From Rhina ancylostomus (Eukaryota): a DNA stretch of 64,000 nt. Both the position numbers and the translations under genes were made by a program. Shown here one piece after another: positions 7,793 to 60,409 of this stretch. The DNA is taken from the NCBI GenBank assembly GCA_030265395.1, contig JARFYF010000065.1, positions 6,031,907 to 6,095,906 of the forward strand, given 5' to 3'. The notes beneath the pieces were generated by a model, which did not search any database, was not told where the DNA came from, and saw nothing but the letters and a program-made list of their open reading frames with translations. Position 1 is the first letter of the stretch. Every line of letters starts with the position of its first letter.

Positions 7793-7826
7793 ATGTCGAG
7801 TGAGAGTGGCCCAGGGAAGAGACTGA
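7779..7826 (+). promoter_or_regulatory. Out-of-frame uORF overlapping the brd4 start codon ([15 protein letters not shown])
   Basis: ATG 7779 in acaATGg context, second ATG 7788, TGA 7824-7826; function inferred. Confidence 0.6.
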
Positions 7827-8074
7827 GAAAATTACCAGCGATGGGGGATGGCCTAGAAAGCACACAGATGTCTTCAACACAGTCACAAGCTCAACCCCAA
7901 CAAAGTAATGTTATTGGTAATCCTCCCCCTCCTGAAACATCCAATCCCAACCGATCCAAACGACTGACAAACCAGCTTCAGTTTCTGTCAAAAGTGCTCC
8001 TGAAGACGATATGGAAACACCAGTTTGCTTGGCCTTTCCAACAGCCTGTGGATGCTGCAAAACTAAACCTACCT
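7793..8074 (+). CDS. brd4: BRD4 exon 2: N-terminus and start of bromodomain 1 (WPF shelf)
   Basis: [27 protein letters not shown]...[21 protein letters not shown]; N-terminus matches BRD4 ([22 protein letters not shown]), not BRD2/3/T; donor CCT|gtaagt at 8075; 282 nt, phase 0. Confidence 0.97.
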
Positions 8075-21935: not shown

Positions 21936-22136
<201 letters not shown>

Positions 22137-26325: not shown

Positions 26326-26818
26326 GAAATGGAGACCAGTTTGAAAAGTCCAAGTTTTCTTAAAACTTGTAACAAGTGAAATAGTAGTTCTAAACCACTA
26401 ACAGCATCTTTATTGCTATTCTTATTGAAATTAGTAAATTTCTCGAATATGCTGGGCTCCAGGCCATATCAGGCTGTATGTGTAACAATCAACTGTCTTA
26501 TTTTTAATGTCATATCTGAATTCTATTTTTTAAGCTCGTCTATGCTCACATAATATTTTGAAAATGGCTCAAACATTTAGGCATTTTGGTGACCATAAGT
26601 CTAGTTTCATTTAGAATGTCATTCCTTTCATTGATTTTGTGGAAGTGGAGGGAATAGATTTAAATTGATAGCAGCATTTTTCTAGAACAGTTGATTTCCT
26701 TTTGTTTCCCTTCCAAATGTAAAATTAAGAATTGATAATCTATTGTTGTACTTTTACTGTTTAAACAGTGTAAATCATAATAACTGTACAAAATAGATTT
26801 TTTTCCTTTCCTTAACAG

Positions 26819-26957
26819 CAAGGGGATGATATAGTCTTAATGGCAGAAGCTTTGGAAAAGATTTTTCTTCAGAAAATTTCAGAGATGCCCCAAGAAGAGA
26901 TTGAAGTACCTATACAGCCTGCTAAAGGATCACGGGGTAGAGGCAGAAAAGAAGCAG
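26819..26957 (+). CDS. brd4: BRD4 exon 4: end of bromodomain 1
   Basis: cctttccttaacag|CAA GGG GAT GAT; [46 protein letters not shown]; G|gtaggg; 139 nt, phase 0-1. Too short for the ORF track. Confidence 0.96.
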
Positions 26958-29470: not shown

Positions 29471-29775
29471 TTCAGTCTAAAACCAACGTGTCAACTGTAC
29501 AGACTGCCCCCCAAGTGACAATGCCAGTATCGGCACCGGCACAACCACAGCAGCCACCACCCCAGCGGGCACCTCAGGCATATCAGCCTGCACCATCTCA
29601 GCCACAGCTTCCATAAGTATCTGTGCCGGCACCCACACCCCAGTCATTTCCTCCTGCGACTCCTGACTTGATTGTCCAGCCACCAACGACAACAGTGTCT
29701 CCTCATACTTCAGCTCCCCCAATGCCGACACTCACGCCAACAACTGTGATGACAACAGCACCACAGCCTTTAAAG
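29471..29775 (+). CDS. brd4: BRD4 exon 5: Pro/Gln/Thr-rich BD1-BD2 linker, containing an in-frame TAA at 29614-29616
   Basis: tgttttttag|TT CAG; (V)QSKTNVSTVQTAPQ...QPQLP*VSVPAPTPQSFPPATPDLIVQPP...TAPQPLK; TPDLIVQ and PQP(L/V)K recall human exon 5; AAG|gtaatt; 305 nt, phase 1-0. Confidence 0.88.
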
Positions 29776-30456: not shown

Positions 30457-30870
30457 CATAAAAAGGGTGTGAAAAGGAAAGCTGACACAACAACTCCGAC
30501 AACCAATGTTCCAGTGAAGAGTCGAGAGTCTTCTCCATTAATGACTGAACCCAAACCTGCAAAGATCCCTTCCAGGAGTGGTAGACCTCCAAAGCCCACT
30601 AAGAAAGAGATTCCAGACTCCCAACAGCAGCAACATCTTGAGAAGGGTGGGGGTGGAAGTGTTGGGATTGTAGGTGGTGGTGGGGTTGTGGTTGGCAGTG
30701 GAAAAGTTTCGGAACAATTGAAGTACTGCACTGGCATTCTTAAGGAAATGTTCGCCAAGAAGCATGCAGCCTATGCCTGGCCCTTCTACAAACCTGTGGA
30801 CGTAGACGCCTTGGGACTGCATGATTATCACGACATTATAAAACACCCCATGGATCTCAGTACTATTAAA
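30457..30870 (+). CDS. brd4: BRD4 exon 6: [12 protein letters not shown] motif and first half of bromodomain 2
   Basis: ctcttttattttcaag|CAT AAA; [16 protein letters not shown]...[38 protein letters not shown]; AAA|gtaagc; 414 nt, phase 0-0. Confidence 0.97.
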
Positions 30871-42945: not shown

Positions 42946-43089
<144 letters not shown>

Positions 43090-44760: not shown

Positions 44761-44967
44761 GATGTTTTTGAGATGCGTTTTGCAAAAATGCCAGATGAGC
44801 CTGTTGAACCAGTTGTTCCATCTCCTCCTCCTGTGCCACCTCCAACCAACCAGGTGTCATCCTCATCCTCGAGTGATAGTAGCAGTGACAGCTCCTCTGA
44901 CAGTGACAGCAGCACGGATGATTCTGAGGAGGAGCGGGCACAGAGGCTGGCTGAACTTCAAGAACAG
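44761..44967 (+). CDS. brd4: BRD4 exon 8: end of BD2, Ser/Asp-rich NPS, start of motif B
   Basis: ttttttctag|GAT; [14 protein letters not shown]...[30 protein letters not shown]; CAG|gtacca; 207 nt. Confidence 0.97.
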
Positions 44968-51158: not shown

Positions 51159-51370
51159 TTGAAAGCGGTACATGAGCAGCTGGCTGCCCTTTCCCAACCA
51201 CAACTGTCAAAACCAAAGAAGAAAGAGAAAGATAAGAAAGAGGAGAAAAAGAAAGAGAAGGAAAAAGAAAGGGAAAGGCATAAAAAGAAAGATGATGTGG
51301 AGGAAAAGAAGAAAAGCAAACCTAAGGAGCAACAGCCAAAAAAATCAAAGAAGAACAATGCAAATACCAG
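51159..51370 (+). CDS. brd4: BRD4 exon 9: motif B end and Lys-rich basic (BID) region
   Basis: tcatacag|TTG AAA; [32 protein letters not shown]...KKNNANT; AG|gtaaac; 212 nt, phase 0-2. Confidence 0.96.
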
Positions 51371-51946: not shown

Positions 51947-52567
51947 NNNNNNNNNNNNNNNNNNNNNNNNNNNNNNNNNNNNNNNNNNNNNNNNNNNNNN
52001 NNNNNNNNNNNNNNNNNNNNNNNNNNNNNNNNNNNNNNNNNNNNNNNNNNNNNNNNNNNNNNNNNNNNNNNNNNNNNNNNNNNNNNNNNNNNNNNNNNNN
52101 NNNNNNNNNNNNNNNNNNNNNNNNNNNNNNNNNNNNNNNNNNNNNNNNNNNNNNNNNNNNNNNNNNNNNNNNNNNNNNNNNNNNNNNNNNNNNNNNNNNN
52201 NNNNNNNNNNNNNNNNNNNNNNNNNNNNNNNNNNNNNNNNNNNNNNNNNNNNNNNNNNNNNNNNNNNNNNNNNNNNNNNNNNNNNNNNNNNNNNNNNNNN
52301 NNNNNNNNNNNNNNNNNNNNNNNNNNNNNNNNNNNNNNNNNNNNNNNNNNNNNNNNNNNNNNNNNNNNNNNNNNNNNNNNNNNNNNNNNNNNNNNNNNNN
52401 NNNNNNNNNNNNNNNNNNNNNNNNNNNNNNNNNNNNNNNNNNNNNNNNNNNNNNNNNNNNNNNNNNNNNNNNNNNNNNNNNNNNNNNNNNNNNNNNNNNN
52501 NNNNNNNNNNNNNNNNNNNNNNNNNNNNNNNNNNNNNNNNNNNNNNNNNNNNNNNNNNNNNNNNNNN
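51947..52567. other. Assembly gap next to exon 10 (other gaps: 14445-14454, 18044-18310, 24873-25391, 27704-27706, 34414-34464, 58889-58911, 60994-61093)
   Basis: Runs of N. Confidence 1.
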
Positions 52568-52569
52568 AG

Positions 52570-52856
52570 GAATATGAAGAACAATAAACCTGGACCCACG
52601 TACGACTCCGAAGAGGAAGATAAATGCAAGCCGATGACCTATGAAGAAAAGAGACAGCTGAGTTTGGACATAAACAAACTTCCTGGTGATAAATTGGGGA
52701 GAGTAGTTCACATCATTCAGTCCCGTGAACCCTCACTGAGAAACTCAAACCCTGATGAGATTGAAATAGACTTTGAAACATTAAAACCCTCCACATTGCG
52801 AGAGCTAGAACGATATGTTACATCATGTTTACGGAAAAAAGCGAGAAAACCTCAAG
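52570..52856 (+). CDS. brd4: BRD4 exon 10: ET domain (5' boundary uncertain, abuts N gap)
   Basis: [95 protein letters not shown]; G|gtgaga at 52857. The ag at 52568-52569 is phase-compatible with exon 9, but the true acceptor may lie in the gap. Confidence 0.93.
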
Positions 52857-54521
52857 GTGAGAGTTTATCCCTTGCATGTGAGAGAGCTAATTAAATTTTT
52901 GGATCAATTTCACACATTTGATTTCTGCGTGCAAATTTACAGAAGCTATTCCTGAAATCAATAATCCTCTTTACTGATATTATTCTCCACTTTCACGTCC
53001 CACGCTATTTCTTATTTGTAGGGTCAATAGGGAGATTTTTTTCCTCTAGGCTTTTCCTAGTATTACCTCTGAAAGCTGGCTGTTGGCGATGTATAAGACT
53101 GACATGGAGTGACTGTTTCTTTCCTGAGCCCTAAGCTGGGTCCTGGGCCACATTACTGGTGTTCTGTGAAATGTCAGCACACTGCATTATTGCCAGAGAC
53201 TAATTTATTGAAAGAATTGTCAATTTTAGAGAACAAAAACAATCACACATACTAAAAGCTGGAAATTTAAAACAACATTTTGGACTTGCATCTGAGAAGA
53301 AAAAAGTTCTTTTTACTCACTGATTGAAATAGTATCACCTCAAGCAAAAAGAGCCTTAAGTGACATCTTGGAATCTAACACAAGGGGTGTAATATTCATT
53401 GGAATGGCCTTCCTTACAATTTCAGTCCCTAGCTCTAACATTTGGAATTCCACAAAAGAAATTTACTTCTGTTGCCTTGCTTGGTGGTGGATAATTTGAA
53501 TCCCATTAGAGTGTTGTCTTGGCAGTTTCCCTTTATTCCATTCCTAATGAGATCACCTTTTATTTACTGTTTAATATGAAGTGTAGGAAATGACACTACA
53601 CTTTTATATTGTAACTTTATAATTCTGCATTCCTTTTTCTTCCCTCAACTTTTGAGGCATCATAGCTTGCTAGAATGACCATTCTTCCCTGATGAGGAGC
53701 CAGTGAGACTTTGCTGATGAGCTGGAGGGTGTTGCAGAAATGCCTTTTTTCTTTTACGATCTTATGATCACATTTTTCTAGCAGTTGGCTTTGATAGTAA
53801 GCAGAAACAGGAATGCAGGGTGATATTTTCCCCTCCCAAGTATCAGCTTGACATTTCAGTGCAAATGCATTTTTGTTAACACTAATATTTCCTCATTTCT
53901 GTTTGGCCAGACTAGTAAATTGTAGCCAAGAATTTGATTAGTGTCATAAAGTTTAAAAAATGTTGACAAGTCAGCATCTGACTTTTTTGATGTTTTGCTT
54001 CCCACACTCATCCCCTTTCTGCTCTCCAGAAACTTAAGTTGAGAGAGAAATTGAAACAACACAGCAAAATCTGGTAAACTAATATTTTGGCTGGTTGTCC
54101 TGAGGCTCGGCACATCATACATGATAGATTAAAGGACTATTTTTTGTTTATTTTTATTATTGTTTATTAAAATGATCAATAATGGTGCAGTATACAAATC
54201 CCTGAAGTTGATGACGATGAAGCCATTTTGTCAAAACTGTAGAATGTGAGAATAATCTGAGTTTAAAAATGAAGCTCTTTAGGTTACTCCCACTCATTTC
54301 TATCTGCCACTTGTGGTTAAATCTGTTCAGGTGTTCATCCTTTTAAGTGGAACAGGAGTTATTGCTTCCCCACCCTTGCCAGGCAGCAAATTCCAGATCC
54401 CCATAATTTTTGGGTGAGGATTTTTGCTCATATCCCCTGGTTTCTTCCTGCTAATTAAAGCCTGTGGCGAGGTCATTATTTTAAGTGAGAGTCAATGGCA
54501 GAGGCAAAGGTGAAATTACTT

Positions 54522-54551
54522 AGAAGAAGAGGAGGAGGAGGAGGAGGAGGA
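54522..54551. repeat. (GAA)n(GAG)n microsatellite
   Basis: agaagaagaggaggaggaggaggaggagga. Confidence 0.9.
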
Positions 54552-56699
54552 ATATATAGATGGTTTCTTGAATAATTGGACTACATAGAGTGATACAGGT
54601 GCAGGAAGAGAATATGCTAGAGTTGGAGCCTCAGAATTAAATACACAAAAATGAAAATGTTAGCATTCGTGATCGTAATCTTGATGGACATTAGAAGATG
54701 GAAAGAAAAGAAACACCAACTCTACTTCAGGCTAAGCCTCAGGCTAGTATGGATTTCATCTCCAGAAATGTAAAATCCATGTAGGAGATAACAGTGACAT
54801 TGATGCCTAAATAAAACAGTTCAGGAACAGCTGATGTAAGTTTTATCTCATAAAGGTAGATAAACATCAACGTTAGGAAAGATACTGGTGTAAGTCTTGT
54901 TAAAATGTATATGAGAGTTTTCATCTTGGTTGAAAGCAAAAGCACTGCAAAGCTTCACATTGAAGTTCTAATTAATTATGCTTCTGAAGTAGACCCCTTA
55001 TGAATTGTGTTAGCAAAATTCACCAGTTTAGTAGTATCATAGTCAACATGCCTGTTGTTTTCCAATAATTCCTTTCAGATTTCACGGGGATAGAAGTTCA
55101 CGTGCAAGGTGAAAAGAGATGATTAGGTGGAAAGGACTTGTACTCAGTGTGGGGCCAGTTAATTAACTTTTCTTGTTAGATAAAAGAGCTAATGGTCCTT
55201 TATTCATTTGGGAATCTAGAAAAACCTCATGAATTTAAAAGTTTGGTGACATGTATCAATTACCAGGAATCGAGATGGAATTTGTGTTTTGCAGATAAAA
55301 TTTGACACCAACCAGTTTCCATGGACCTCTCAGTTGCAACCTGTTCTGTGGTTGAGTTACTTTTATGAAGTTATGGTGTGTTTGGCTTCTGAGATCATGA
55401 GTTTTGTTGCAGTATTTTTCTGGTGTCTTAAGCTCCATATGTTTCATAAATGGAAAAAAATTATGGCTGACACAAGTGAGTTGGAAACTTCCTCTTTGAT
55501 GCAGGAAGTAGTTCTGCAGGAAGATGTAATTTGCAGAGCTAAAGGGAGCATCGGTCACTTTTTGTACTATAGAATGTGTTCTATATAGAATATGCAGTGA
55601 ACCTCAAATTCTGGAAAAGGTTTGAATACAGGCTGAGGTTTTTGGCCCAAAATTATGTTTGAAGCCTGTTAACTTCACTGAAGTGAGTAATAAAATCTAT
55701 CAACTTTGAAGCCAATTTCAGTCTTGCAAACCACATTTCATTTTGTTTTTATTTTTGATTACTTTTGAAATATTCTGGGCATACTTTACAGTTTAAACTA
55801 CCGTTCCCCTCTTTTATTTGGTGCTTGTCAAATGGATCCTCTTTGTGCAGAAAAATGGGCCTCATGTTTGTGTTAGGAACCCAGGGGCAAAACCAAACTA
55901 TCCTAACTCGCAGCATATCCAAAAGTGCAGACAAACAATGTTCCCTAACTCTGAATGCACAGGGAACCCACGGGGCGATCCAAGTGCTCTTGGGCCCCTA
56001 GTAAGTTATCCACGCATTCATTAAGATTATTAATGCTGTACTTGGGTTTTTGGCCTTTAAGGAGTTGACATAGTACAAATTCATTTTGCCTCATGATCTT
56101 GTAATGCAATCGCACAAAATAAATTGAACCCAGGTATAATTTTCTCTGCTTGTCCCTTCTGACCAAAGTGATTAACAAATACATGACCTTGGACCTTTTT
56201 TATTTGAAGATTGTCACTGGTGATGCTTATATGCCATGATATAATGATCCTCACTATTGTGGGGACAGGTGCTGTTACAAGTTTACCCATGCTGTCAGCA
56301 TTGTTACTGTAACATTAACTGATTGAAACCACAAAAAAAAAGCCTTTTAATGCAGCAAAATGTCCCAAAACACGAGAGCAACGTTGGTATCCTTTTGATG
56401 GTGACACAGGCTATATCAATGACAGTGATTGAAATTTGGTGTTTGGAGTAGATTTGCGGGACAGTTTTATGAGGAGAATTATAGAGCATGTTGGCAAGGT
56501 AACCAGTGATGAGGTGATTAGAGTAGAGGGTGTGCAAGAGGCCAGAAATGGGGGGACAGGGGGTCTTGAGATCTTGTTGAGCCGAGGGGGTGGAGATTGA
56601 ACCTCAACATTGAGGACTTTAAAATGAGGTATTTGTTGCCAGGACCTGTATAGTTCAGAGCATATGTTATGTATGATTTAAAACTCATAGCAGTGAGTT

Positions 56700-57090
56700 C
56701 AGTTGTGCTTCTGCCAGGGGAAAATAGGAAAGAAGTATATTATGAGAGACTTCCGAGATGCAGAGGCATCTGGGTGAACTAGTGCACGATTTGCAAAAAG
56801 CTAGAATGCATACACCCGAAATAATGGAGAAAGCCATCACTGTCAGTGCTAGGGAGATCAGTTACAGAGGACATTGGTTAGACCACATCTGGAATACTAT
56901 ATGGCATTAATCTCCTCTGAAAAGAAAGGATGTTAATATTATTGGAGGCAGTTCAGAGGATTTCAGGACAAATAACTAAAATGAGGTTGGATAGGCTTTG
57001 CTTGTATGTGGCAGAGCTTAAGAGTGAGAGGAAAGTTGATTGAAACCTAAGATCCTGAGGCGTCTTGACGGGATGGGAGAAAGTGTTTTT
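56700..57090 (+). mobile_element. CR1 ORF2 3' remnant
   Basis: 'cattggttagaccacatctggaatac' (LVRPHLEY); collinear with 11420-11830. Confidence 0.7.
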
Positions 57091-59184
57091 CACATAATAG
57101 ATCGAAATACTGTGTTTCTGAGAGAAAACATTTCACAAAACTAACCCTTACTCAATTCAGGTGCAGTTGAACTGACTTTAGTCGAGTCTTAGCCAGAAAC
57201 CACAGTGTGATGCTCCAGGTAAGCCATGACAGATGTACATCCCCAATGAATTAAATGTATGTGGGAACAGGCAACCCTAATCCTAAATACAAAGAAAGAC
57301 ATTTGACGTTCCTGTATTAGTGTGCTTATCATGGCTTTGCTCATTGGATCGGGCAGAATTGGTACATTACCACTATCCTTAAAATTAGCTCCAAACCTTT
57401 AGGATTGTGGAATTAAGAATGCTTAATTTAAACAAAATCACAAAATATTTTCTTCCACCTCCTGGTTTTTAAAAAAAGTTCCTTTACCAATACCTACTGT
57501 GCTAAACTGCAGTTTGAATAACAGGTAGTAGAACTCTAGGAAATTTTTCTACATCATCAGTCCTTGAAAACTTGCTGGCTCTTTTTTTTGGACAGTTTCA
57601 TTTTCTGTATTCCAAATGCCAGGAGCATTCCATTGAACATTAAAATGTCCTGTCCATTAAAATGCTTTTGGAATGTAGAGCAACTTCAACCAGTTGCTTT
57701 GTAATTTGGTGCTTCCTGTACCAATGATTTGACCTTGAGGTTGTGACGGATATCTGAATTTGCATGTTCTTGGTAGCTAACATCTGTATGCATATATGAG
57801 GTCTAGATTTGTTCCAGATCCCAGGTTACAGCATTTTCTCCCTAATTAGTTCATGAACAGTTAAGACAGAATATGTTCTTCTGCTCACACATCTAAGATG
57901 TGATTGTATTCTTATGAAGACCATTGATAATTATATTTGTAAGATTCATGTATGATGCTGGGGAAAAGGACTTGCTGTACTGTAGTCAAATAGAAAATTT
58001 GCCTCAATGCATTTTATTGATAACTTGAGCATTGGTTGCCAGTGAGAGATAACCAATATGTCCATGGATTACAGTAAGGACAGTGAAAAATAGTTAATTT
58101 TGGTGTAGTTATTGTAACATGATGTGATTTTCATTGTGCTCTATGTGAATGGGTTCTTTGGCCCTAATCTGGGTGATATCTACCTTGTTTATTGGAAGAT
58201 ACTGTAATATTCAGTTTTTTTGTGACAATGATTGTCTTTTTACTTTGGATATATCATTTGTTAAATGATCTACACTGTTACAGCATCATTGGACTTGTGA
58301 ATGGGCATGCACAGGTTGGGTATTGACATCTTTGGGGCTGCTTAACTTAGAGGTCAGAACAACAGCTGGTTTTCAGAGGTACACTATTTCCTTTTTAATT
58401 TTGAATCAGATTTGACTTCTCCAGTGAAATAGATTTTGAATTTGGCAAGTGCTGAATTTCAGTAGTGATGTCATGATACAAAAGTTTAAATTTTATTGGG
58501 GGGGCGCTGGGGGAACCATAGGTGGATATTTATGGGGATAACAAAAAAATTATGCTAATTACGCTAACCCTGCTACTGCGGATGCCATAGAGTTCTCTGG
58601 CTGTCATGGCAGCTAGTTTTTGGTTTTGGATCCCTTCAGATGGTTTGACCATTGCTCTTTTGACATGAGTGAAAGTAGTTAAAAATTAAATTGGTCCAAT
58701 TTTTTTTAAATGGGAAATTTTTTTTATCCCTCAATTCTTGAGCCTCGGGCTTTTTGCAATGAATTTCTGAAGTTGACCTCTTTGTAAGCAGTGACCAGGG
58801 ATCATTCCCCTCACTCCCCTTCTCTCTGTCCTGTATTTTTGTGCAGCTCTTTACAGTAGCACAACCTGAGGTTGGAATGTGTTTAGCANNNNNNNNNNNN
58901 NNNNNNNNNNNACTTCAATTTTTTACAATGTGATTTCATGTTTTAAGGCAAAATTATCATGAGCTCACTTCGTGCTTCCAAGCATTTGCTAAAGTCTCTT
59001 TAGATTATTGGCCTTCTAAGTTGCAAACAATGAATAGATCCTTTTTTCCTTTAGCTGCTTTTCCTTCCTTCAATTTGCATCTGATCCCATGTGCCAAATT
59101 AGATTAATTTTATTCACTGTGTTGTACCTGTGTAATGGTACCAAAGAGCTTGGTCCAAATCTTGTTGTGTGATGCTGTTTGCAG

Positions 59185-59304
59185 TGAAAAAAGTCCCAGG
59201 GAAATCGAACGATGAGCTCCAGCTAGACTCGAAGAGTGAGCTGGATACCAGGTTACATGACGTTAGCGGCCAGCTGAGCTCTGGGAAGAAACCAGGCAGA
59301 AAAG
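59185..59304 (+). CDS. brd4: Post-ET exon of BRD2/BRD3 type (putative coiled-coil segment)
   Basis: tgctgtttgcag|TG AAA; (V)[39 protein letters not shown]; G|gttggt; 120 nt, phase 1-1, open and in frame with exon 10; resembles BRD3 [22 protein letters not shown]. Confidence 0.9.
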
Positions 59305-60409
59305 GTTGGTGTAGTGCAACCTTGTGAAGTAGATCCTTAGGTGAAATAGGTCGGGGCCAAGGTTAAAATTAATTTGTGCAACTATGTAATAGCTTTAATT
59401 TTGTTGTGCACATACCTCTCAAACTGCAATGTAATTGGCAGAATTCTGGTTCATGCTTGCGGAAGAGTGCGGCTTTTGGTGGCATTTAGTAAATTGGCTG
59501 ATTTTCATTGGTTGCATTTGGCTGCTATTTCTCCAAGTGTTGCAGCTTTACATTGGGTCACAGTGATTTTTAAAACCATACAGTTGAGAGGTATGGTGGT
59601 AATCTCATCAGTATTTGATTTATTGGATTGAAACAGGGTTTAATTCTGGATATATACTGCAGGTAATGATTCACACTGCAATTGTAGGTAGAGGGTAAGA
59701 TGTAATTTTCTGAAATTTTGCTATGAATAGAGATGTTTACTTTGTCCTGTGTTCTGCCTATAATGAGCAATCAATAATAATGTTGGTTTTTGTAGAAAAT
59801 ATTTCTTGGGAGTCAATGTAGTATCTGAAACTAACAGTTCCTTAATCTTTTCTGCTAATGGAAAATTGCTTGTATACAAATATTTAACTTTAAAACAGGA
59901 AACTGGTGATGCACTCGTTTTTTTTAAAAAATGAGAGCATAGCCTTTAAATGTTCAGACCAGAGCAATGGGATTAACATTGTGTTTTCTCCTGGGTATCT
60001 TCCAATGTTGTACATTGAACCTAAGAACTAATGATTTGCAGATTCGATATTAAAGGGGATATCAAAAGCACCGATTCCAATACACATGGCAGCCATCAAT
60101 TTGATGAAACATACTATTTTCTCTCCCCTCCCTGTTCCAGAAAAAAAAATTGGACAGTGCATTATTTCTCTTTACCAAAACAGTATACATCTATAATGTA
60201 CACACTAGAGGCAGTGCAACTCTTTATTTAACCAATGTTGGGTGCCTTGGACAGTTGAAGCATTTGGCACTTTATGCAGTGCCTTCTTATACTGCAAAAT
60301 GATGCACATTGCAAGTCTGTACTCGTTTATATAACAGTGCCCTAGATTAATTCCTTGGATGAGCAGAATTTGCTCTATTAGTAGAGATTAAGCAGACTTG
60401 ATCTATATA

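Follow-up and report, generated by a model that had tools for sequence, protein, structure and literature searches.

Does the BRD4 gene of a cartilaginous fish encode, directly behind its ET domain, a coiled coil that mammalian BRD4 lacks, and is the exon concerned a relic or a part still in use? The question arises from a 64,000-nt stretch of the Rhina ancylostomus genome (the whole of which is hereafter called the window), in which a first-pass annotation had described a symmetric, in-frame 120-nt exon at positions 59185–59304 of the forward strand. That description holds in all its parts: this coiled-coil (CC) cassette exon of brd4 is bordered by an AG at 59183–59184 and a GT at 59305–59306, the 120-nt frame between them is open, its phase is 1-1, and the encoded peptide is the one reported. 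Because the ET exon ends in phase 1 at its donor and the Ser/Glu/Asp-rich (SEED) exon that follows also starts in phase 1, the reading frame is kept whether the CC exon is in or out.

Identity and architecture of the gene

The Rhina ancylostomus genome (2.2 Gb) contains four loci encoding ET domains, on contigs C65 (the window gene), C68, C56 and C63; the last two exons of the C68 gene are nearly identical to skate BRD2 proteins P0022–P0026. The window gene, together with 43 kb of downstream sequence, is collinear with newt and gar BRD4, and in tblastn the match to newt spans from the first residue to the C-terminal domain (CTD). The last 22 residues are 95% identical to newt BRD4, and the long Pro/Gln-rich C-terminal half is present. 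Searches with the first exon return BRD4-type proteins as best matches, with up to 80% identity. In a maximum-likelihood tree of the BD1–BD2–ET region (29 rows, cut just after ET, with CC, SEED, CTD and exon 5 left out), the window gene is sister to the seven bony-vertebrate BRD4 rows with support of 100/99; these rows form a clade of their own, also at 100/99, and a quick tree has the same shape. On contig C65, AKAP95-family matches are located 68–160 kb upstream and one Notch gene (paralog not assigned by tree) ~790 kb downstream, a neighborhood that we take to correspond to the human gene order AKAP8/AKAP8L–BRD4–NOTCH3. The earlier identification of the gene from its N-terminus is sustained: N-terminus, tree placement, AKAP95-family and Notch neighbors, and CTD exons all agree that the window gene is BRD4. 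There is one Notch on every BET contig, four in all. The match on C68 (G000:C68:7297342-7297497, L036) is a fourth, more divergent Notch NOD match ~2.9 Mb from the BRD2-like gene and, by position, a candidate for the NOTCH4 counterpart in cartilaginous fish.

The exons listed here for the window lie on the forward strand. The first coding exon (7793–8074), which encodes a BRD4-type N-terminus and the start of BD1, is followed by a BD1 exon (21990–22127) and by exon 4 with the end of BD1 (26819–26957). The borders of exon 4 are approximate, and its exact 5' border is uncertain owing to a tandem acceptor at 26816–26822 (CAG CAA GGG after ...TAA). The Pro-rich exon 5 (29471–29775) contains, in the assembly, an in-frame TAA at 29614–29616; the flanking sequence on both sides aligns to newt BRD4, and the stop is probably a base error or an allele of the assembly. 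Exon 6 (30457–30870) encodes motif A and the start of BD2, and includes a Gly/Val-rich insertion (30640–30700) directly before BD2. The gene continues with a BD2 exon (42946–43074), an exon comprising the end of BD2, a Ser/Asp-rich stretch and the start of motif B (44761–44967), and an exon for motif B and the basic region (51159–51370), the phase 2 donor of which matches the acceptor of the ET-domain exon (52570–52856). From the donor of the ET exon, splicing leads to the CC exon or directly to the SEED exon, the latter situated 5.4 kb beyond the end of the window (L005:5401-5523). A single match to TGCATG, which we take to be an RBFOX-type motif, occurs 17 nt into the intron behind the ET exon (52873–52878, forward strand). 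The introns flanking the CC exon measure 6.3 kb on the ET side and 10.1 kb on the SEED side. In the BRDT-like gene of the same genome (L026, C63), the ET, CC and SEED exons are found within ~800 bp, with introns of ~90–100 nt.

Origin of the CC exon and its absence from bony-vertebrate BRD4

When searched against its own genome, the CC peptide identifies a post-ET exon in each of the other three BET genes, with E values of 2.7e-5, 1.3e-4 and 5e-3, and its resemblance to BET post-ET segments is no accident. The exon is present at 4/4 BET loci, in phase 1-1 at each, with lengths of 120, 120, 129 and 120 nt. The peptide also matches residues 100–131 of the BRD2 chain 6cui_A (E 2.4e-5), and a representative protein library yielded 33 further matches at E<=1e-3, of which all eight with sequence inspected are BRD2/3-type post-ET segments. 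The top match in this library, P0236, is a tandem-repeat protein and was rejected as spurious; a near-identical copy of the CC exon was not found in the library. Protein identity to the three paralogs in the genome is 44–56% over 32 residues (codons), and third-position identity to the paralogous exons is 22–28%, which is chance level. Since the third positions are saturated relative to the paralogs, the exon is not a recent conversion or import, and it descends from the genome duplications. The CC segment also occurs in hagfish, arthropod and ribbon-worm BETs, in mammalian BRDT and in the BRDT-like gene of this genome. The designation "BRD2/BRD3-type" given by the first-pass annotation is thus apt as to homology with the BRD2/3 post-ET exon but too narrow, as BRDT and the hagfish and arthropod BETs share the segment. 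With the CC so widespread among BETs, bony-vertebrate BRD4 is the exception. CC and CTD motifs are found together in 92 of the 183 retrieved BET proteins of at least 600 aa, including arthropod BETs and mammalian BRDT, a count made with motif patterns that miss some cases (for example, P0081 and P0092, in which the CC is visible in alignment); this combination is likely to be the ancestral BET layout. Separately, the CC has degenerated independently in two lamprey BETs (P0151 and P0155) and in reedfish BRDT (P0142), so the CC helix has been weakened more than once.

Of the bony-vertebrate BRD4 proteins covering the ET–SEED junction, 0/28 contain the CC exon. These derive from 11 named species (alligator gar, two teleosts, newt with seven named isoforms, three lizards and four mammals) plus four unnamed entries; BRD4-type fragments running from ET into the intron were left out as uninformative, and BRD4 of bichir, sturgeon, coelacanth, lungfish and chimaera lies outside the retrieved set. 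The reported absence of the exon from mammalian BRD4 is thereby borne out for four mammals and extends to the other tetrapods in the set. A second claim, that ancestral BRD4 had the exon and that bony-vertebrate lineages lost it, stands as regards the ancestral state and the loss; separate losses need not be invoked, because the BRD4 proteins of gar, teleosts and tetrapods, all without the CC, group in a single clade. One loss on the bony-vertebrate stem suffices and is the simplest reading, although it is not proven. Full-length cartilaginous-fish BRD4 was not found in a CC-exon search of longer proteins (15 candidates), nor among the 120 matches listed for each of the ET-exon and first-exon searches; the only cartilaginous-fish BRD4 among the matches listed is an intron read-through fragment, P0002, with its two cluster members. 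The CC isoform may well already be included in automated public annotations of sharks and rays.

An ET-CC (ETCC) module of BRD2, BRD3 and BRDT was reportedly defined by Werner et al. 2020. The module is treated in PMC8446420, PMC11335234 and PMC11939847, and its structure is given in PDB 6cui. Like the ETCC segments of BRD2, BRD3 and BRDT, the window exon comes directly after ET, with the same exon phase and length and the same hydrophobic seam; unlike them, it belongs to BRD4, is optional, and encodes a less basic surface and a shorter predicted helix. The gene resembles bony-vertebrate BRD4 in the order of its parts (N-terminus, BD1, BD2, motif B, ET, SEED, Pro/Gln-rich region and CTD) and differs from it in the extra cassette exon between ET and SEED, such that the skipped isoform has the bony-vertebrate ET-to-SEED layout. 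An included long isoform would carry CC and CTD in one chain, as do BRDT and the arthropod long BETs (Fs(1)h-L type), although the CC of these proteins is canonical in most entries (basic, with a full-length helix), unlike that of the window. Mammalian BRD4 is described in PMC11939847 as having no coiled coil after ET, a trait that in the window gene only the skipped isoform shows, and PMC8446420 and PMC11939847 present the CC as the chief sequence feature mapped as separating BRD2/3 from short BRD4. Within the literature covered, we found no paper on the CC exon in cartilaginous-fish BRD4; most subscription journals lie outside this coverage, and the alignments or supplements of Werner et al. 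2020 may mention fish. The word "shark" is absent from the available part of PMC5133849. In the gene described here, the known ET-CC module is encoded by an exon that is conserved yet optional, and it stands in the very paralog that has been described as having none.

Splicing in related species, sequence constraint and surface change

Twenty-two runs, with 11 organism labels, hold part of the interval 59100–59400, and seven of these runs were aligned in detail. Each of the 11 labels holds at least 23% of the sampled words of this 301-nt stretch, and four of the 11 are represented in the alignments. The runs are coded and come as contigs only, with tissue labels not given, so that species and tissue effects are not separated; their RNA origin is deduced from GT..AG joints, not from run records. 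One contig of run X1 crosses a GT..AG joint from 52856 to 59185 (ET to CC), and joints from 59304 to SEED (CC to SEED) are present in another X1 contig and in X9. In X5, a 2174-nt contig passes from ET directly to SEED, and the CC exon occurs only inside intron-containing contigs. The predicted skipping to a mammalian-like form is thus observed in X5, and the inclusion joints of X1 and X9 dispose of the concern that the exon might never be spliced in. X9 displays the included form and X5 the skipped form, in contigs that drop rare variants. Among the joints listed, direct ET–SEED and ET–CC joints do not occur in the same run. X1 and X10 continue from SEED to the next exon of long BRD4. X4 (no cover of the exons) and X2 and X6 (no cover of the SEED exon) are uninformative.

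The points at which contigs break off provide a further indication. The ET and CC exons both end in AAG, and the intron acceptor before SEED ends in CAG. With 31-letter words, a contig that reaches SEED should stop after 27 letters where two AAG-ending exons meet and after 28 where the intron is the only alternative; without an alternative, it should continue. The extent into SEED is 27 letters in X1, 28 in X5 (six as a chance match and 22 loose) and 153 in X9, which runs on. The SEED contigs of X1 and X10 both start a single unaligned letter ahead of the acceptor AG. The break points of X1 and X10 indicate two AAG-ending predecessors, from which we infer that both splice forms coexist within X1 and within X10. 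That the CC exon is real, ancestral, part of BRD4 and skippable is, in our estimate, close to certain.

Differences from X1 were counted for three neighboring exons in this one species pair, without a genome-wide control. The CC exon differs at 1/122 nt (a Glu-to-Asp change) versus 25/286 nt in the ET exon (p=0.0014); 17/17 individually listed ET-exon differences are synonymous, and the CC exon has no synonymous change in 40 codons. The SEED exon, with 3/125 differences, is also below the ET exon (p=0.019). With SEED conserved too, the constraint extends over the region and may operate at the RNA level. In X1 and X5, intron sequence on either side of the CC exon is conserved across species at >=85% identity over ~110–240 nt on the 5' side and 130–300 nt on the 3' side, corresponding to a U/G-rich upstream flank (58943–59184) and a UG-rich downstream flank (59305–59600), both on the forward strand, a level that most of the 6.3-kb intron does not reach. 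Further upstream are short conserved intronic blocks within 58258–58405 (58258–58315 in X5, 58353–58405 in X1) and a block at 58762–58832, found on the X5 contig that bridges the gap at 58889–58911; these too are on the forward strand. The CC acceptor has a weak polypyrimidine tract, with 11/19 pyrimidines and 7 G, versus 11–16 pyrimidines and 0–3 G in six other acceptors. Its donor scores 7/9 against the consensus and is not notably weak, since most other donors of the gene score the same. Counts of splicing-factor motifs, made without a control, are given no weight here. An exon that preserves the frame, diverges little and has conserved flanks fits the profile of a conserved regulated cassette.

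At the protein level, the 24-residue core keeps its heptad seam (K10, L13, L17, V20 and L24; register assigned by hand) and the flanking residues E12, R16 and D19. Core positions 2, 8, 9, 11, 14, 15 and 18 carry residues seen in 0/50 other distinct cores, a comparison whose search pattern itself fixes position 14 and passes over the degenerate cores of lamprey and of reedfish BRDT. All seven replaced positions lie outside the a/d seam of the hand-assigned register. The net charge of the core is −4, versus 0 to −1 in the paralogs, and its mean helix cost is 0.454 versus 0.329+/-0.022 (maximum 0.385) on the Pace–Scholtz scale. Single-sequence AlphaFold2 predicts a helix at 17–32 (16 residues, mean pLDDT 75) for the CC peptide and at 9–31 (23 residues, 85) for the BRD2-like exon of the same genome, a comparison of one pair in which the control resembles a solved structure and may profit from it. 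The erosion of charged residues noted at first reading is therefore confirmed and can be specified: the replacements fall outside the seam, the net charge has reached −4, and the predicted helix is shorter.

Possible function and competing explanations

We consider a constrained cassette to be the best reading of the CC exon, and assign a probability of roughly 55% to its acting as an in-frame, regulated switch for a weakened BRD2/3-like protein-binding helix beside the ET domain. Judging by conservation, splicing factors would act on the weak U/G-rich signals and the conserved flanks to regulate inclusion. By analogy with work on human BRD2, inclusion may equip the protein with an ET-CC module for contacts to initiation or PAF-type partners; these contacts would probably be weaker, since the prediction leaves the helix unwound over its N-terminal half. 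Skipping would give the bony-vertebrate BRD4 layout. The retention of the seam under a rewritten surface suggests that the helix still packs on something and that its affinity or partner has changed. Given the seven replaced core residues, the charge of −4, the helix cost and the shorter predicted helix, its BRD2-like activity may be gone. As a history, the first BET gene would have possessed both CC and CTD, and BRD2/3 would have lost the CTD; BRD4 would have made the CC optional and rewritten its surface, after which the bony-vertebrate ancestor likely lost the exon outright.

A wider proposal can be offered tentatively, although we think it rather unlikely to be right in full: one locus would, through two splicing choices, produce BRD2/3-like (CC, no CTD), bony-type (CTD, no CC) and ancestral (both) proteins, TFIID-linked initiation and P-TEFb-linked elongation would be switchable within BRD4, and the human-type split would have been completed when the bony ancestor fixed the skipped form. 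A putative short isoform that includes the exon would have the exact layout of BRD2/3.

According to 10.1101/2025.09.20.676678, deletion of a C-terminal fragment of BRD2 that contains the CC, and is larger than it, abolishes TFIID binding; the same preprint proposes that BRD4 gained its P-TEFb domain and later lost its initiation function. Yeast Taf7 is reported to bind the ET domain itself (PMC13373324), so the contact with TFIID may lie elsewhere than in the CC. Moreover, arthropod BETs and BRDT carry the CTD alongside the CC, which makes the CTD look like an ancestral feature and not an acquisition of BRD4. The window exon gives a date and a route to a loss that current BET papers invoke: on this evidence, BRD4 of the last common jawed-vertebrate ancestor still had the CC, which then turned optional and is absent from the proteins of bony vertebrates. 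The two natural isoforms constitute a ready pair with which to ask whether the CC alone turns BRD4 BRD2-like; the seven surface replacements indicate which face of a proposed drug target likely binds the partner.

Several other explanations bear on the reality and present state of the exon. An artefact, whether a chimeric scaffold, a misassigned paralog or a recent brd2/brd3 conversion, has a negligible chance of accounting for it. The assembly is a draft with many gaps and has one in-frame stop in exon 5, and the gap at 51947–52567 is not bridged by the contigs aligned, for which the stretch compared began at 52568; yet newt and gar BRD4 are collinear with the sequence on either side of that gap, the downstream sequence by itself gives 4–7 HSPs to BRD4 versus 1–2 to BRDT, and the gap at 58889–58911 is bridged by single contigs in X1 and X5. 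Of the two places at which a chimera had been feared, one is thus closed by contigs, and the other has collinear BRD4 on both sides. RNA joints link ET, CC, SEED and the next exon of long BRD4, which already refutes an artefact for the ET–CC–SEED stretch, and separate loci for all three paralogs, saturated third positions, the tree and synteny also oppose it. A processed pseudogene was considered as a source of the spliced contigs and rejected, the search of the assembly with the CC peptide having returned only the four BET loci. The earlier reading of the exon as a decaying vestige drifting towards loss is already disfavored, and we regard it as very improbable: the charge-eroding replacements, shorter predicted helix, weak acceptor, skipping in X5 and the comparable weakening of the segment in lamprey BETs and in reedfish BRDT would suit it, but the low divergence relative to the neighboring ET exon, the persistence of the stretch under 11 organism labels, the conserved flanks and the spliced inclusion in X1 and X9 do not. 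The phrase "intermediate of exon loss" accordingly suits what happened in the gene family over time but not the exon as it is today, judging from the X1 difference counts and the conserved introns; the erosion looks old and now frozen, and the exon maintained rather than decaying. Inclusion could instead be fixed by lineage, constitutive in some cartilaginous fishes and silenced in others (organism D, for example), as the included-only path of X9 and the skipped-only path of X5 might suggest at contig level in different organisms. The two-predecessor signature in X1 and X10, and the conservation of the skipped exon region in X5, where the listed gaps fall in intron positions only, make this highly improbable.

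Two further explanations accept the constraint and assign it a different cause. The exon may be kept as RNA, for splicing or 3'-end regulation such as a coupling to the choice between short and long isoforms, with the peptide a tolerated spacer without BRD2-like binding; we deem this possible though unlikely. It agrees with the lack of synonymous changes set against the many in the ET exon, with the conservation of the flanking introns, the SEED exon and the intron behind it, and with the replacement of surface residues that are near-invariant in other BETs. It is harder to reconcile with the retention of the seam and of E12, R16 and D19 despite saturated third positions, and nucleotide constraint is also typical of regulated cassettes that code for protein. 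Being in frame and free of stops, the exon is not a poison exon. Alternatively, the helix may have been repurposed as an acidic, CK2-phosphorylated extension of the following Ser/Glu/Asp-rich region that tunes BRD4 by phosphorylation. The core does contain three S/T-x-x-D/E sites versus one in each paralog, with its net charge of −4, and control of BRD4 by CK2 is described in PMC8578508; against this, matches to so short a consensus are common, the sites are putative, and the seam is still conserved, so we hold it to be very unlikely. The regulated, protein-coding cassette thus remains our preferred reading.

The SEED exon itself merits a separate observation. Its donor GT is directly followed by TAG, and read-through into this intron would yield a short BRD4 ending at SEED, resembling the short gecko BRD4 entries P0288/P0290. 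The nearest AATAAA/ATTAAA is located ~1.16 kb downstream of the SEED exon. The first 74 intron letters after SEED (L005:5524-5597) are conserved in X1, on a 6-kb contig that may represent unspliced RNA.
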